NCBI GenBank assembly: GCA_016867715.1
Contig: VGIW01000006.1
Span: 233 to 64,232, forward strand
From: Candidatus Eiseniibacteriota bacterium
GTDB taxonomy: Bacteria > Orphanbacterota > Orphanbacteria > Orphanbacterales > Orphanbacteraceae
Reading direction: 5' to 3'
Length of the DNA: 64,000 nucleotides
Position numbers and translations under genes: made by a program. Within the stretch, counting starts at the first letter, position 1; each line of letters starts with the position of its first letter. The notes beneath the pieces are model-generated. The model ran no database searches, was not told the origin of the DNA, and worked only from the letters and a program-made list of their open reading frames with translations. This document shows positions 3,880 through 44,723 of the stretch, one piece after another.

Positions 3880-3956
3880 CGGGGCGTGGGGCAGTCCGGT
3901 AGCCCACTAGCATGGGGCGCTAGGAGTCGCTGGTTCAAATCCAGTCGCCCCGACCA
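3880..3956 (+). tRNA. tRNA-Pro (anticodon GGG), CCA encoded
   Basis: Folded by hand as a cloverleaf. Acceptor CGGGGCG/CGCCCCG, anticodon stem CTAGC/GCTAG, loop AT-GGG-GC, T arm GCTGG-TTCAAAT-CCAGT, discriminator A followed by CCA. Confidence 0.9.
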
Positions 3957-5441: not shown

Positions 5442-6238
5442 GGCCCTATCGGGGCGCGGAGGAATACCGGACCGCGCGCGAGCGGATGGTGCGAACCGAG
5501 GCGATCGAGAAGGGGATCCGGGATCCGCGGGTGCTCCGGGCGCTTCTCGAGGTCCCGCGCCATCTCTTCGCCGAAGAGGCGCTCGCCTCGCGCGCCTACG
5601 GGGCCCATGCGCTCCCGATCGGCCGCGGGCAGACCCTCAGCCAGCCCTATATGGTCGCGCGGATGACCGAGGCGCTCGAGCTCCGGGGAGGAGAGAAGGT
5701 CCTCGAGGTGGGGACGGGGAGCGGCTACCAGGCGGCGGTTCTCGCCCGAGCCGGCTGCCGCGTCTTCTCGGTCGAGCGGATTCCCGAGCTCGCGCAGCGC
5801 GCGCGAAAGATCCTCGACGCGATCGGGGCGGCGAACGTCGTCGTGCGGATCGGCGACGGGTCGGAAGGGTGGCCCGAGTTCGCTCCGTTCGATCGCATCC
5901 TTCTGACGGCGGGGGGGCGCGCGATTCCTACATCCCTCAAGGATCAACTGGGGGAGGGGGGCATCGTCGTGGCCCCGGTGGGAGAGCGCCGTCAGGAGCT
6001 CCTGCGCGTTCGGAAGGAGAGAGGAGGGGAGCGGGTCGAGACGCTCGGCCCCTGCCGGTTCGTTCCCCTCGTGACCGGAGAGGGCCGGCGGCGAAAGACG
6101 GATCGAGCGGAGCCGGCGGGGGAGACGGATTCTCCCCGGCGCCCGCAGGACCTCCCGGCGCCGAGAGGGGCGGCGGACTTCCGAGCGCGAAAAAAAGGGA
6201 AACTGGGGGGTTTTCACCCTCCCACGAACCCGCTATAA
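5438..6238 (+). CDS. pcm: Protein-L-isoaspartate O-methyltransferase with a ~55-aa basic low-complexity C-terminal tail
   Basis: ATGA overlap with the surE stop. Contains RHLF...YGAHALPIGRGQTLSQPYMVARMTE...VLEVGTGSGYQAAVLA...GDG..GWPE.APFDRILLTAG. Confidence 0.85.
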   Translation: MRPYRGAEEYRTARERMVRTEAIEKGIRDPRVLRALLEVPRHLFAEEALASRAYGAHALPIGRGQTLSQPYMVARMTEALELRGGEKVLEVGTGSGYQAAVLARAGCRVFSVERIPELAQRARKILDAIGAANVVVRIGDGSEGWPEFAPFDRILLTAGGRAIPTSLKDQLGEGGIVVAPVGERRQELLRVRKERGGERVETLGPCRFVPLVTGEGRRRKTDRAEPAGETDSPRRPQDLPAPRGAADFRARKKGKLGGFHPPTNPL

Positions 6239-6362: not shown

Positions 6363-6439
<77 letters not shown>

Positions 6440-9179: not shown

Positions 9180-9253
9180 GCCCCCGTAGCTCAGTCAGGA
9201 TAGAGCGCCGGTTTCCTAAACCGGGAGCCCAAGTTCGAGTCTTGGCGGGGGCA
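9180..9253 (+). tRNA. tRNA-Arg (anticodon CCT), no encoded CCA
   Basis: Acceptor GCCCCCG/CGGGGGC, D arm GCTC-AGTCAGGATA-GAGC, anticodon arm CCGGT-TT-CCT-AA-ACCGG, T loop GTTCGAGTC. Confidence 0.85.
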
Positions 9254-19975: not shown

Positions 19976-20280
19976 TTCTTCGTACGGCCGGGGAGGCCGA
20001 AGTCGATCGAGCGATCGCGCCCCTTCCCGGCCGCATTTCTTTGCGGGCCGCTCCTGGGCCGGCCGCCCCGATCCTCTTCGTTCGCCCCGCGCGCGTCGAT
20101 GCGCGCAAGCACGAGAAAGAGACGCCGCACCGCCTCCTCCAAGGATTCCGACGCGAGGCGCGAGGCGGCGTCTAGCTCCCGGGCCGCCTCGTCCCACCGC
20201 CCCAGAAGGCGCAGCGTCCGATAGCGCCGGAGCCGGCCCTCCAGAAGGGACCCCATCTCGTCGATCGGTTCCGAATCCAT
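19972..20280 (-). CDS. Hypothetical protein (102 aa)
   Basis: MDSEPIDEMGSLLEGRLRRYRTLRLLGRWDEAARELDAA... sits in the same frame as the rejected 406-aa ORF. It lies downstream of the kinase-like gene, and only the helical N-terminal half looks protein-like. Confidence 0.25.
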   Translation of the reverse strand: MDSEPIDEMGSLLEGRLRRYRTLRLLGRWDEAARELDAASRLASESLEEAVRRLFLVLARIDARGANEEDRGGRPRSGPQRNAAGKGRDRSIDFGLPGRTKN

Positions 20281-36839: not shown

Positions 36840-36893
36840 CAGAAAGAAACGGCCCGGCGGAACCGAGGGATCGTATCCCCGCTCCGCCGGGCC
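36840..36893 (-). terminator. Intrinsic terminator downstream of the histone-fold gene
   Basis: GGCCCGGCGGA...TCCGCCGGGCC (11-bp stem with an inner GGGAT/ATCCC hairpin), followed on the minus strand by GTTTCTTTCTGCTT. Confidence 0.55.
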
Positions 36894-36922
36894 GGCGCGT
36901 CGATCGGAAGATAGTTGAGATC

Positions 36923-37114
36923 TTACAGATCGTTCGGCTTCAGGGTTTTCCTCTTGTTGCCCATCGCGCGCCGCTCGGCCTCGGCGATCATGTCGCGGAC
37001 CTTCTTGTCCAGCGCCCCGTAGAAATCGCTTGAAACGTTGCACTTCTTCGCCGCCGCCTTCGTGCGCGACTTGGAGATGATGAGCTCCACACCGGGTTTC
37101 TTCTTCGTGGCCAT
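36923..37114 (-). CDS. Histone-fold DNA-binding protein candidate (singlet bacterial histone type, 63 aa)
   Basis: MATKKKPGVELIISKSRTKAAAKKCNVSSDFYGALDKKVRDMIAEAERRAMGNKRKTLKPNDL. The RKTLKPNDL segment and the preceding helix pattern parallel archaeal HMfB (..AGRKTIKAEDI). GGAGGA RBS 9 nt before the ATG. The gene has its own promoter and terminator. Confidence 0.7.
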   Translation of the reverse strand: MATKKKPGVELIISKSRTKAAAKKCNVSSDFYGALDKKVRDMIAEAERRAMGNKRKTLKPNDL

Positions 37115-37172
37115 TCCCACATTCCTCCCAAACGTTCGTTTGTCTCTTCCGGGGCCTTCCCGTTTCGCGTGT

Positions 37173-37202
37173 AAAGTAGAGGATCCGAAGAAACGCTGTC
37201 AA
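37173..37202 (-). promoter_or_regulatory. Sigma-70-type promoter for the histone-fold gene
   Basis: The minus strand reads TTGACA-18 nt-TACTTT, giving a ~50-nt leader. Confidence 0.5.
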
Positions 37203-37205
37203 CCG

Positions 37206-37232
37206 AAAAAAGGCGCGAGGGGCTCTCTCGCG
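37206..37232 (-). terminator. Intrinsic terminator of the ABC/CPBP operon
   Basis: The minus strand reads CGCGAG-7 nt-CTCGCG-CC-TTTTTT. A T6 run is rare in this GC-rich DNA. Confidence 0.6.
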
Positions 37233-37326: not shown

Positions 37327-39279
37327 TCATCCGTCTCCCCCTCCCCATTCCCTCTCCCTCAGGAGGAGGAGAGCTCCCGCCGCGAGAAGGACCGCCCCCG
37401 CGACCAACGGCGCGGAGAGGATCTCCCCTTCGAGGGCCCCCCCGGCGCCGCCCGCCCAAATGCCGATGCCGTTGTAGACCGCGTGCAGGAACATCGCCGG
37501 TACGATCGATCGGGTCCGCAGGACGAGCCACCCGGCGATAATCCCGAGCAGCGCGGTCGGCAGGAACCGGTAGATGCTGAGGTGGAAGAGCCCGAAGAGG
37601 AGCCCCCCCGCGAGGATGGCTCGGGCCGGCGAGAGAACCCTCCGGTACTGTCCGAGAAGAAGGCCCCGGAAGAGCATCTCCTCGCAGATCCCCGGGCTCA
37701 CCGCGACCGCAAACAGGACGAAGACGAGGCCCCCCTCTCCGCTGTCCAGCAGCCTCTCGAAGGTCTCCATCATTTCTTCCGGGACGGGAAGGAACCGGCT
37801 CTGCGCGTGGAAGAGCAGGTTCGCCGCGAGAAGCGATGCCGGCGCGAGAAGAACCCCCGCGAGGAGATGCCGCGGGCTCGGCAGCCGGAGGGAGAAATCA
37901 CGGCGGAAGTCGAGGCGAACCCATCGCGCGAAGACGAGCGTCGGGAGAAGGAGAAACCCCCACAGCGTGAGGATCACGCCCGAGAGAAGATCCCTCGACT
38001 GGACGAAAGACCCGAGATAGTAGAGAACGAGAATCTCGAACGCGAAGAAGACCGTCGCCTCGCGCGCCCTTGGGCGGTCGGCGGGGAGAACCCCCTGCTC
38101 TCTTCGCGCTTCTCCATAGACCGTCCGCTCGCTCGAGAGAAACGCGCGCGCCCATCGAAGGACCGCGTACGCCCCGATCGAGTTCGAGAGAACGACGAGC
38201 CCGAGAAAGAGGACCGGGTAGTTCCCGAGAAGCGCCTCCCGCACGGCCACGGCGACGTTCGCGATCGGCACGATCGCGACGATCGATTCGAGCCGCACGC
38301 CCGGGGCGACCGAGGCGGCTGCGGGGACCACGCCGAGAAGAAGCGAAGGAAGAAGGAGAGTCTGCGCTTCGCGGTAGGTCCGCGCGTGGCTCGAGATGAG
38401 GACGAGGACCGCGGAAAGAAGAAACGCGAGAGGGAGCGAGATCGCGAAGACGACCGCGGCGGAGAGGGGCGACACGGACCACGCGTCATGGAGTCCCTCT
38501 CCCCCCGCCCATCGCACGCGCGTGAAGAAAAAACTCGAGGCAAGAAAGAGGAGCGTGGCGATCACGGCCGAGACGGCGACCGCGAGGAACTTGCCGGCCA
38601 CGATCGAGGAGCGCGGAGCGAGCGACGTGAGAAGGGTCTCGATCGTCTTCCGTTCGCGCTCCCCCGCAAAGAGATCGACCGCCGCGAAGGAGGCTCCGTT
38701 CAGGAGGAGAAACACGATCAGGATCGGAAGGAGCTTCCCCAGCTTCCCCCCCGCCATCCGCTCCTCCGACGCGACGTTCTTCTCCTCCACCGGGAGAACG
38801 CGCTTCAGCTCCGCGGCGCCCAAGCTGTCGAGGCGCGCCTCGCGAACCTCCGTCTTCCATTCGTCCACGATCCGGGCGACCCTCTCCCTCGCCTCGCCGG
38901 AGAGACCGCTGGAAGCGTCGTAGAAGAGAACCGCTTCCGGCTCTCCGCCGGCGGTGATCGCGAGGTCTTCCGGAAGCCGAACGCCGACATCGGCGCGGCC
39001 GGAGCGAACCGCCTCGCCCGGATCGCGGGCGCGGAGCGGCCGGACGCCGGGCGAGGAGACGATTCGCTCGCGAAGATCCGGAAGGCCCCCCTCGACGACC
39101 GCCGTCACCGTCTCCTCCTTGAGCCGGTTCTCTCCGTACGACGAAAGGCGCGCGGAGCCGAAGATCAGGATCGGATGGATGAGAACGGGGAAGACGATCA
39201 TCGCCAGGACCGACCGGCGATCGCGGAGAAGGTCGATCATCTCCTTGCGGAAGACGAGTAGCGTGTCTCCGGCGCTCAT
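37327..39279 (-). CDS. ABC-2 (NatB-like) permease fused to a C-terminal CPBP/Abi intramembrane glutamic protease domain
   Basis: ATGA overlap with the ATPase stop. The N-terminal 400 aa have ABC-2 permease topology with a large extracytoplasmic loop. The C-terminal ~230 aa carry EEMLFRGLL, FGLFHL and FLHAVYN (CPBP motifs 1-3). Confidence 0.8.
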   Translation of the reverse strand: MSAGDTLLVFRKEMIDLLRDRRSVLAMIVFPVLIHPILIFGSARLSSYGENRLKEETVTAVVEGGLPDLRERIVSSPGVRPLRARDPGEAVRSGRADVGVRLPEDLAITAGGEPEAVLFYDASSGLSGEARERVARIVDEWKTEVREARLDSLGAAELKRVLPVEEKNVASEERMAGGKLGKLLPILIVFLLLNGASFAAVDLFAGERERKTIETLLTSLAPRSSIVAGKFLAVAVSAVIATLLFLASSFFFTRVRWAGGEGLHDAWSVSPLSAAVVFAISLPLAFLLSAVLVLISSHARTYREAQTLLLPSLLLGVVPAAASVAPGVRLESIVAIVPIANVAVAVREALLGNYPVLFLGLVVLSNSIGAYAVLRWARAFLSSERTVYGEARREQGVLPADRPRAREATVFFAFEILVLYYLGSFVQSRDLLSGVILTLWGFLLLPTLVFARWVRLDFRRDFSLRLPSPRHLLAGVLLAPASLLAANLLFHAQSRFLPVPEEMMETFERLLDSGEGGLVFVLFAVAVSPGICEEMLFRGLLLGQYRRVLSPARAILAGGLLFGLFHLSIYRFLPTALLGIIAGWLVLRTRSIVPAMFLHAVYNGIGIWAGGAGGALEGEILSAPLVAGAVLLAAGALLLLREREWGGGDG

Positions 39280-40028
39280 CCTTCCCCCCCGCCCCGAACG
39301 AGAGAGAGGAAGATCTTCTCGAGAAAGCGCTGCCCCGTCCGCGCGCGAAGCTCCTCGAGCGAGCCGACCGAGAGAATCCGGCCGCGGTGGATGACGGCGA
39401 TCCGGTCGCAGATCCGCTCCGCCTCGCTCATCACGTGGGTGGAGAAGACGACGCACTTCCCTTGGCCCCGGCACTGCTCGATGTAGGTGAGAAGCGCGTC
39501 CGCGACGAGAATATCGAGGCCGGCCGTCGGCTCGTCGAAGATGAGGATCGGAGGGTCGTGGACCACCGCGCGCGCGATCGATACCTTCTGGCGCATCCCC
39601 GTCGAGAGCTTCTCGCAGCGGACATCGGCGAACTCGTGCATGTCGAAGAGAGCAACGAGATCGCGGATGCGCTCCTCGAGCGCGTCTTTCGGGTAACGGT
39701 TGAGGAGGCCGAAGTAGCGGAGGATCTCGCGCGGGGTGAGGCGCGCGTAAAGGCCGGTCTCCCCCGAGAGGTAGCCGATCGAGCCGCGCACCTTCTCCGG
39801 CTCGCGGACGATGTCGTAGCCGTTGAGGAGTGCGCTTCCCGACGTCGGCCCGAGAATCGTCGCGAGCATACGGAGCGCCGTCGTCTTCCCCGCCCCGTTC
39901 GGCCCCAGGATCCCGAAGATCTCCCCCTCGACGCAATCGAACGAGATCGCATCGACCGCGACGACATCCCCACGCTTCGCGTCCGAATAGATCTTCTTCA
40001 GGCGGTCCGCGGCGATCATCTGCGCCAT
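39276..40028 (-). CDS. ABC transporter ATP-binding protein (NatA-like)
   Basis: GILGPNGAGKTT (Walker A), LSTGMRQKV (signature), ILIFDEPTAGLD (Walker B), FSTHVM (H-loop). Confidence 0.9.
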   Translation of the reverse strand: MAQMIAADRLKKIYSDAKRGDVVAVDAISFDCVEGEIFGILGPNGAGKTTALRMLATILGPTSGSALLNGYDIVREPEKVRGSIGYLSGETGLYARLTPREILRYFGLLNRYPKDALEERIRDLVALFDMHEFADVRCEKLSTGMRQKVSIARAVVHDPPILIFDEPTAGLDILVADALLTYIEQCRGQGKCVVFSTHVMSEAERICDRIAVIHRGRILSVGSLEELRARTGQRFLEKIFLSLVRGGGEG

Positions 40029-44646: not shown

Positions 44647-44723
44647 GTCCCCATCGTCTAGCCAGGTCAGGACACCGCCCTTTCACGGCGGCAACACGGG
44701 TTCGAATCCCGTTGGGGACGCCA
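44647..44723 (+). tRNA. tRNA-Glu (anticodon TTC), CCA encoded
   Basis: GTCCCCA-TC-GTCTAGCCAGGTCAGGAC-A-CCGCC-CT-TTC-AC-GGCGG-...-CGGGTTCGAATCCCG-TGGGGAC-G-CCA. Confidence 0.9.

Follow-up and report, generated by a model that had tools for sequence, protein, structure and literature searches.

Within a 64,000-nucleotide stretch of a Candidatus Eiseniibacteriota genome (contig VGIW01000006.1, positions 233 to 64,232 of the forward strand; hereafter the window), an open reading frame (ORF) at 36923..37114 on the minus strand encodes a 63-residue protein with a histone fold, which we consider established from sequence profiles and structure modelling. The gene probably specifies a chromosomal nucleoid-associated histone of the α3-truncated family that belongs to the face-to-face (FtF) subclass. 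This family has already been described bioinformatically and one bacterial FtF member has been characterized; the window gene adds a member. To our knowledge, HBb and HLp are the only bacterial histones that have been characterized both structurally and functionally, and their DNA-binding modes differ.

Coding evidence and histone fold

The product of the ORF, MATKKKPGVELIISKSRTKAAAKKCNVSSDFYGALDKKVRDMIAEAERRAMGNKRKTLKPNDL, has a mass of 7.0 kDa, a pI of 10.2 and a net charge of +10 (17 Lys and Arg residues versus 7 Asp and Glu residues). Its coordinates and translation are exactly those given in the original prediction, which was made from the sequence alone. The ORF is a real gene, as indicated by codon-position composition, selection and conservation. 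GC content at third codon positions (GC3) is 0.88, compared to 0.42 at second positions (GC2), in a window of 66.7% GC, and this GC3 resembles that of the adjacent genes. The median ratio of nonsynonymous to synonymous divergence (omega; Nei-Gojobori, against 77 relatives) is ~0.15, with synonymous sites close to saturation. In addition, conservation peaks at the ORF when the window is compared to L009, a collinear relative that is ~91% identical and was labelled "Gemmatimonadetes bacterium" by its submitter. Across the 4.9-kb aligned region the histone ORF is the best-conserved segment, with 98.4% nucleotide identity versus 89.5–93.9% for the flanking genes. Put differently, 3 of 192 nucleotides differ while the flanking genes have diverged by 6–10%, and the synonymous divergence of the histone core is unusually low (proportion of synonymous differences, 0.03). 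In this small sample, the low synonymous divergence is suggestive of strong constraint at the codon or mRNA level.

We used sequence profiles and structure prediction to investigate the fold. A single-sequence phmmer search of the PDB returned HTkC, an FtF histone from the archaeon Thermococcus kodakarensis (9F2C, E 1.4e-3; Schwab et al. 2024, PMC11390915), and the Leptospira perolatii FtF histone HLp (9QT0, E 6.4e-3; further structures 9QT1 and 9QT2; Hu et al. 2025, PMC12701072). With a profile built from 41 close homologs (the close-clade profile), the E-values became 9.5e-7 for HTkC and 1.9e-4 for HLp. A profile built from 38 singlets with identity down to 41% (the diverse profile) matched HTkC at 1.4e-16, HLp at 1.2e-13 and HBb, also known as Bd0055, at 2.6e-10, followed by HmvA (7.5e-5), NF-YB (0.013), HMfA (0.022) and H4 (about 0.8).

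A first AlphaFold2 (AF2) monomer model was generated from a shallow alignment of near-identical sequences. The predicted local distance difference test score (pLDDT) of this model was low at 66.7, as expected for an obligate dimer, and Foldseek returned a meaningless result, with TetR matches at E ~7, so it was replaced by a model built from the diverse alignment. The second model (pLDDT 83.1) has helices at residues 15–21 and 29–52 and a turn at 60–62. The predicted layout of the protein is a Lys-rich tail (1–9), α1 (~15–21), loop L1 (22–28), α2 (29–52), loop L2 (53–59) and a one-turn α3 (60–62). A Foldseek search of the PDB with this model ranked HTkC first, followed by HLp and HBb, and the top 50 matches were all histone-fold proteins. 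Superposition on HLp gave TM scores of 0.76/0.84 and a root-mean-square deviation of 1.7 Å over 56 columns. Since the profile matches to solved histones, the confident model and the Foldseek search agree, we take the predicted product to be a histone-fold protein. The features on which the original prediction had based this reading (a singlet with a truncated α3, a basic N-terminal tail and an R-K-T...D motif in loop 2) are all present, and it had staked the reading on a significant histone-fold match and a fold in the model, both of which were found.

Probable assignment to the face-to-face subclass

In histones of the α3-truncated family, α3 is reduced to 3–4 residues and α2 lacks 4–5 residues relative to nucleosomal histones (Schwab et al. 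2024, PMC11390915). The window histone fits this description in the AF2 model: it ends one residue past D62, has a single turn at 60–62 and has an α2 of 24 residues. Its alignments to HLp, HTkC and HBb also run over the full length. The R-x-T-x4-D motif that forms the RD clamp is present, and R55, T57 and D62 are invariant in both the close-clade and the diverse alignments.

Within this family, R48 and N52 are found in FtF histones and not in bacterial dimers (Schwab et al. 2024, PMC11390915); these positions of the FtF logo correspond to R49 and N53 in HLp numbering. The FtF category itself is defined by quaternary structure, a torus-shaped homotetramer that has been either predicted or solved. 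In the crystal structures of HLp the dimer–dimer interface is formed by R49, N53 and R55, and the RD clamp by R55 and D62 (Hu et al. 2025, PMC12701072). The window histone carries the complete signature of R49, N53, R55, T57 and D62, and in 38 diverse relatives (down to 41% identity) the sole invariant columns are these five and A46. Of 150 proteins chosen to represent clusters at 50% identity, 113 carry the pattern R-x3-N-x-R-x-T-x4-D. Because R49 and N53 are present, the expected behavior is formation of a tetramer and DNA wrapping, rather than bending of DNA by a dimer or end-on coating.

The original prediction had taken Bd0055 of Bdellovibrio bacteriovorus as the type specimen. The Bd0055 sequence that it gave matches PDB entries 8FVX and 8CMP, and its reading of a truncated singlet histone holds, while the choice of Bd0055 does not. 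If the window histone were a bacterial dimer of the HBb type, it would remain a dimer and either bend DNA as HU and IHF do or coat straight DNA end-on, in neither case wrapping it. We consider this unlikely. HBb, an abundant nucleoid-associated protein in a bacterium, does share the α3-truncated singlet fold, the short α2, the size, the RKT...D motif and the RD clamp. It is matched by the diverse profile and by Foldseek (TM 0.73–0.75), and the dimer is the basic unit of all histones. However, in the profile alignment the residues of HBb opposite the invariant R49 and N53 of the window family are S and D, and HBb is strictly dimeric. Furthermore, pairwise BLASTP of the window histone against HBb gave no alignment at E <= 100, and the close-clade profile did not reach HBb at E <= 10. 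Whichever query was used, the two solved FtF histones took the top places, HTkC ahead of HLp, whereas HBb came up with the broad profile alone, where they outscore it by 3–6 orders of magnitude. Bacterial dimers are defined by clustering with HBb together with the lack of R48 and N52 (Schwab et al. 2024, PMC11390915); the window histone neither clusters with HBb nor lacks these residues.

Several observations weigh against assignment as an FtF histone. Single-sequence scans of the protein against Pfam and NCBIfam returned nothing above threshold. At a position in the dimer core, L47 of HLp is replaced by an E47 that is invariant in the close clade (codon 36974–36976), and the α1 hydrophobic residues V16 and I20 of HLp are replaced by T18 and A22. 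The FtF signature is not a strict predictor, because HTkC has E at the N53 position and still tetramerizes. It should also be noted that residue conservation is what points to an FtF tetramer of the window histone. The Pfam and NCBIfam results were set aside because such scans are too insensitive for a divergent 63-residue singlet. The two Pfam models that had been proposed for checking the original prediction likewise failed to detect the fold: CBFD_NFYB_HMF (PF00808) gave no match at E <= 10, and DUF1931 (PF09123) gave 14.9 bits, below its gathering cut-off of 21.8 (E 0.031). Among the 38 relatives, each model gave weak matches in 24, with best E-values of 7.8e-4 for CBFD_NFYB_HMF and 7.9e-5 for DUF1931.

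The DUF1931 similarity bears on another reading, in which the protein does not organize chromatin but acts as a protein–protein scaffold or a specific regulator, as has been suggested for DUF1931 pseudodimers. Relatives are named "DUF1931 domain-containing" by NCBI, and Schwab et al. (PMC11390915) caution that prokaryotic histone-fold proteins need not all organize genomes. However, the NCBI name reflects remote similarity. The sub-threshold match covers only positions 23–53 of the model (31 of 138), which describes two histone folds, whereas the window protein is a singlet and not a pseudodimer. Its pI is high, the DNA-contact lysines and the β-bridge threonine of HLp are kept, the closest characterized relatives are abundant DNA binders (PMC12701072, PMC10627809), and there is no conserved partner gene nearby. 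A non-chromatin role is therefore improbable, slightly more so than an HBb-type dimer.

For an FtF histone, we propose the following mechanism. Two chains would form a classical antiparallel histone-fold "handshake" dimer, and two dimers would join face-to-face through the C-terminal end of α2, loop L2 and the one-turn α3. R49, N53 and R55 would contact residues at the C-terminus of the chain opposite, the R55–D62 clamp would fix L2, and the outcome would be a stable, torus-shaped tetramer that also exists free of DNA. Its basic perimeter would bind the phosphate backbone non-specifically and wrap ~60 bp per tetramer, which would compact and protect the chromosome. This perimeter would comprise K15, R17, K19, K23 and K24 of α1, an L1–L2 "β-bridge" near S28/S29 and K56/T57, and the Lys-rich N-terminal tail, which would contribute electrostatic contacts. 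Tetramer formation, DNA wrapping and abundance are the most likely properties of the window histone by homology to HLp and HTkC. HLp wraps ~60 bp of DNA as a preformed tetramer and irrespective of sequence (Hu et al. 2025, PMC12701072), and the ortholog of HLp in L. interrogans is essential and highly abundant (Hocher et al. 2023, PMC10627809).

The DNA-contact positions of HLp (PMC12701072) were transferred using profile and MAFFT alignments, in which HLp has a 2-residue insertion in L1. In this register A13/S14/K15 of HLp correspond to K15/S16/R17 of the window histone, K17 to K19, K21 to K23, T27/G29 to V27/S29 and T56/T57 to K56/T57. A gapless phmmer register for α1 was rejected; the profile/MAFFT register aligns SKVK with SRTK and places T18 on V16 of HLp. 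Opposite S14, K15, K17, K21 and T57 of HLp, the window histone has basic or polar residues that are conserved. Within the clade K15, K19 and T57 do not vary, and R17, K23 and K24 are almost invariant. The length of the Lys-rich tail varies from 0 to 39 residues in close homologs (median 10). Loop L1 also contains Cys25 (codon 37040–37042, within KKCNVSSDFYGALD), which is invariant in the close clade and is F, M or L in most other FtF histones. Cys25 may be structural, buried like F25 of HLp, or redox-sensitive.

Comparison of the window protein with characterized histones shows both shared features and differences. HLp is likewise a 63-residue bacterial singlet with the same fold, a basic α1 face, a short disordered N-terminal tail and the NCBI "DUF1931" label, and its R49, N53, R55, T57 and D62 are identical at identical numbering. 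However, identity to the window histone is only about 32–33%, the L1 loop of HLp is 2 residues longer, the substitutions at positions 47, 18 and 22 described above separate the two, and the window clade has the invariant Cys25 and a Lys-richer tail. HLp is also encoded next to smc/map in Leptospira, whereas the window clade has no conserved neighborhood and a different host phylum. HTkC, a torus-shaped tetramer, scores highest of the solved structures in sequence searches and is the first by Foldseek, and the start of its α2 (VSxEFYDALE) almost equals that of the window histone (VSSDFYGALD); it differs in being archaeal, in an L1 that is 4 residues longer, in the absence of a basic N-terminal tail and in the E at the N53 position. 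The archaeal nucleosomal histones HMfA/HMfB and eukaryotic NF-YB/H4 have the histone fold in common with the window protein, along with the R-x-T...D motif of L2, and give weak profile matches (E 0.013–0.8). They differ in having a full-length α3 and a longer α2, and their tetramers, which are held by a four-helix bundle (with His49 in HMfB), build up hypernucleosomes or nucleosomes.

Expression cassette and distribution of the family

The histone gene appears to be transcribed alone, from its own strong σ70-type promoter to its own terminator, as would be expected for an abundant structural protein. The predicted promoter (37173..37202, minus strand) has a −35 hexamer TTGACA at 37202..37197, an 18-nt spacer and a −10 hexamer TACTTT at 37178..37173, giving a predicted 5' untranslated region (UTR) of ~50 nt. 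Both hexamers are identical in L009. The −10 keeps the TAnnnT positions but has only 3 of 6 consensus matches, and for this reason a stricter σ70 promoter scan listed no promoter for the gene. A Shine-Dalgarno sequence GGAGGA lies at 37123..37128 (minus strand), with GGAGG at 37128..37124 positioned 9 nt before the ATG at 37114. Because of this spacing, the ATG (63 residues) was preferred over a GTG two codons upstream at 37120; every homolog starts with MA-x-K.

Downstream, an intrinsic terminator is predicted at 36841..36894 (minus strand). It consists of a G+C-rich stem of 14 bp, counting G-U pairs, with a small inner hairpin (36894..36850), followed by TTTCTTTCT at 36849..36841. Its folding free energy is −42.3 kcal/mol (z = −3.1), with equal stability in 1 of 200 shuffles, and the stem is kept in L009. 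On the other side, the terminator scan placed a hairpin (37232..37214) and T6 tract (37211..37206) at 37206..37232 on the minus strand, abutting the histone −35. This element, identical to L009 at 35 of 35 nt, terminates the upstream ABC-2/CPBP operon, and its T6 tract possibly doubles as a UP-element-like T-tract. The intergenic geometry, with 212 nt to the stop of the upstream gene (37327) and 217 nt to the stop of the convergent gene (36705), indicates that the histone gene is monocistronic. The promoter, the ribosome-binding site, the T6 terminator immediately upstream and the monocistronic layout had all been proposed in the original prediction and are borne out; the downstream terminator stands as well, though its stem had been given as 11 bp. 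For the high expression that it read into this layout, the conserved consensus −35 and the low synonymous divergence provide indirect support.

We assessed conservation of the cassette in 69 non-redundant loci from many phyla that encode histone relatives. TTGACA, counted as an exact sense-strand match at most 127 nt upstream of the gene, was found in 37 loci, compared to 1.3 in shuffles (maximum 5) and 1 for its reverse complement. A −35/−10 pair was found in 30 loci (2.6 in shuffles), and a hairpin followed by a T-tail lay 3' of the gene in 56 (11.8 in shuffles). In 43 homologous loci we also surveyed the 20 nt that precede the −35. In 29 of these, from different phyla, a T-run (TTTT-T) directly abuts TTGACA, with the consensus ...TTTTcCt TTGACA. 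This recurrence suggests either a UP-element-like part of a common strong promoter or systematic insulation from upstream transcription.

A conserved operon partner, comparable to smc/map in Leptospira, was sought, and none was found; the neighbors differ in every lineage examined. For example, thiS and thiG lie downstream of the histone gene in an Eisenbacteria contig, and in a Krumholzibacteria-type contig the gene is flanked by topoisomerase VI and a helicase. As promoter and terminator are conserved while neighboring genes are not, the stand-alone, self-promoted and self-terminated layout is a family trait across lineages.

In a database clustered at 90%, 1639 homologs of the window histone were detected at E <= 0.01, and the profile reached 512 clusters at 50% identity. 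Relatives with the clade motifs are encoded by at least 354 GTDB species representatives. The original prediction stated that bacterial histones have been characterized in very few lineages, which is correct for experimental work; bioinformatically, as these counts show, the family is large and catalogued. Carriers are mainly Eisenbacteria, Methylomirabilota/NC10, Latescibacterota, Krumholzibacteriia, Myxococcota and Planctomycetota, and our literature and supplement searches found no paper on histones in Eisenbacteria, Methylomirabilota, Latescibacterota or Krumholzibacteriia. In published surveys the main bacterial carriers are Spirochaetota, Planctomycetota, Bdellovibrionota and Myxococcota (PMC11390915, PMC12701072). 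The window gene belongs to a very large and extremely conserved FtF sub-clade in phyla outside the surveys' main carriers.

While the ORF is very short and has no Pfam or NCBIfam match above threshold, the suggestion that it is spurious, or was recently acquired from a phage or mobile element, is effectively refuted by the 1639 homologs, the omega of ~0.15, the GC3 of 0.88 shared with adjacent genes, identical synteny in 8 independent assemblies and in L009, a context of chromosomal housekeeping genes, and the absence of relatives among 2.9 million viral contigs and of any PHROG match, on which a phage or mobile origin was rejected.

Across phyla the histones are 70–97% identical, compared to ~65% for the window's phosphofructokinase. 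A tentative explanation, which we regard as possible but doubtful, is that in several large uncultured bacterial phyla the clade serves as the main chromatin protein, under eukaryote-histone-like constraint and with a shared strong promoter of the "T-tract + TTGACA" type. Alternatively, a self-contained histone cassette could recently have spread by horizontal transfer and so account for the similarity. If the clade is indeed a principal chromatin protein, histone chromatin would be mainstream among the bacteria of those phyla, and no peculiarity of Bdellovibrio and Leptospira. An easily expressed 7-kDa protein of this clade could show whether tetrameric DNA wrapping is general in bacterial FtF histones, and could also address the cause of the extreme sequence constraint. 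For annotation, hundreds of genes in metagenome-assembled genomes now called "DUF1931 domain-containing protein" or "hypothetical protein" would become "FtF (α3-truncated) histone".

Surrounding genes and related loci

The histone gene is flanked in the window by an operon encoding ABC-2, ABC-ATPase and ABC-2-CPBP proteins and by a convergent acyl-CoA carboxylase/enoyl-CoA hydratase operon. Elsewhere in the window, the phosphofructokinase has its nearest matches in "Candidatus Eisenbacteria bacterium" proteins (93% and 75% identity); this group and the Gemmatimonadetes of the L009 label are both part of the FCB group. At 37327–39936 (minus strand) the mechanical ORF list gives an 869-residue ORF with a TTG start. 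Gene calls on identical contigs place within it a 650-residue fusion of an ABC-2 membrane domain and an Rce1-like (CPBP) domain, starting at ~39279, with an overlap of 4 nt at the stop of the ABC ATPase gene that lies upstream (39276–40028). A long antisense ORF at 37483–39261 (plus strand) is a high-GC artefact.

We also probed the 64-kb window for HU and IHF and obtained only chance-level matches. The best of these was IhfA (E 0.034) at 19989–20120, where the ORFs have no HU-like features. An Rfam scan matched no RNA family in the 5' UTR of the histone gene and detected no rRNA or other family in the window apart from four tRNA genes, all on the plus strand: Pro-GGG (3880–3956), Pro-CGG (6363–6439), Arg-CCT (9180–9253) and Glu-TTC (44647–44723).

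Two related loci on Krumholzibacteria-type contigs encode both subunits of an archaeal-type topoisomerase VI (Top6A/Spo11-Toprim and Top6B), at 1523–4494 in L089 and 1523–4812 in L090. In both, a histone homolog (P0039) is encoded at 6001–6210, 1.2–4.5 kb from the topoisomerase VI genes, and its gene also adjoins one for a DEAD/Helicase_C/MZB helicase. The presence of an "archaeal-like" DNA-topology toolkit beside a bacterial histone may be coincidence.

Some relatives are tandem doublets of ~97–130 residues (P0159, P0171, P0173, P0176, P0179, P0185, P0203, P0206, P0215, P0217, P0218, P0225, P0231, P0237 and P0261) with the FtF signature N-x-R-x-T-x4-D in both halves. They constitute pseudodimers of the FtF type and differ from the DUF1931 and HstA-type pseudodimers that the cited literature names. 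Two further relatives, P0192 (260 residues) and P0161 (160 residues), carry extra domains or extensions.

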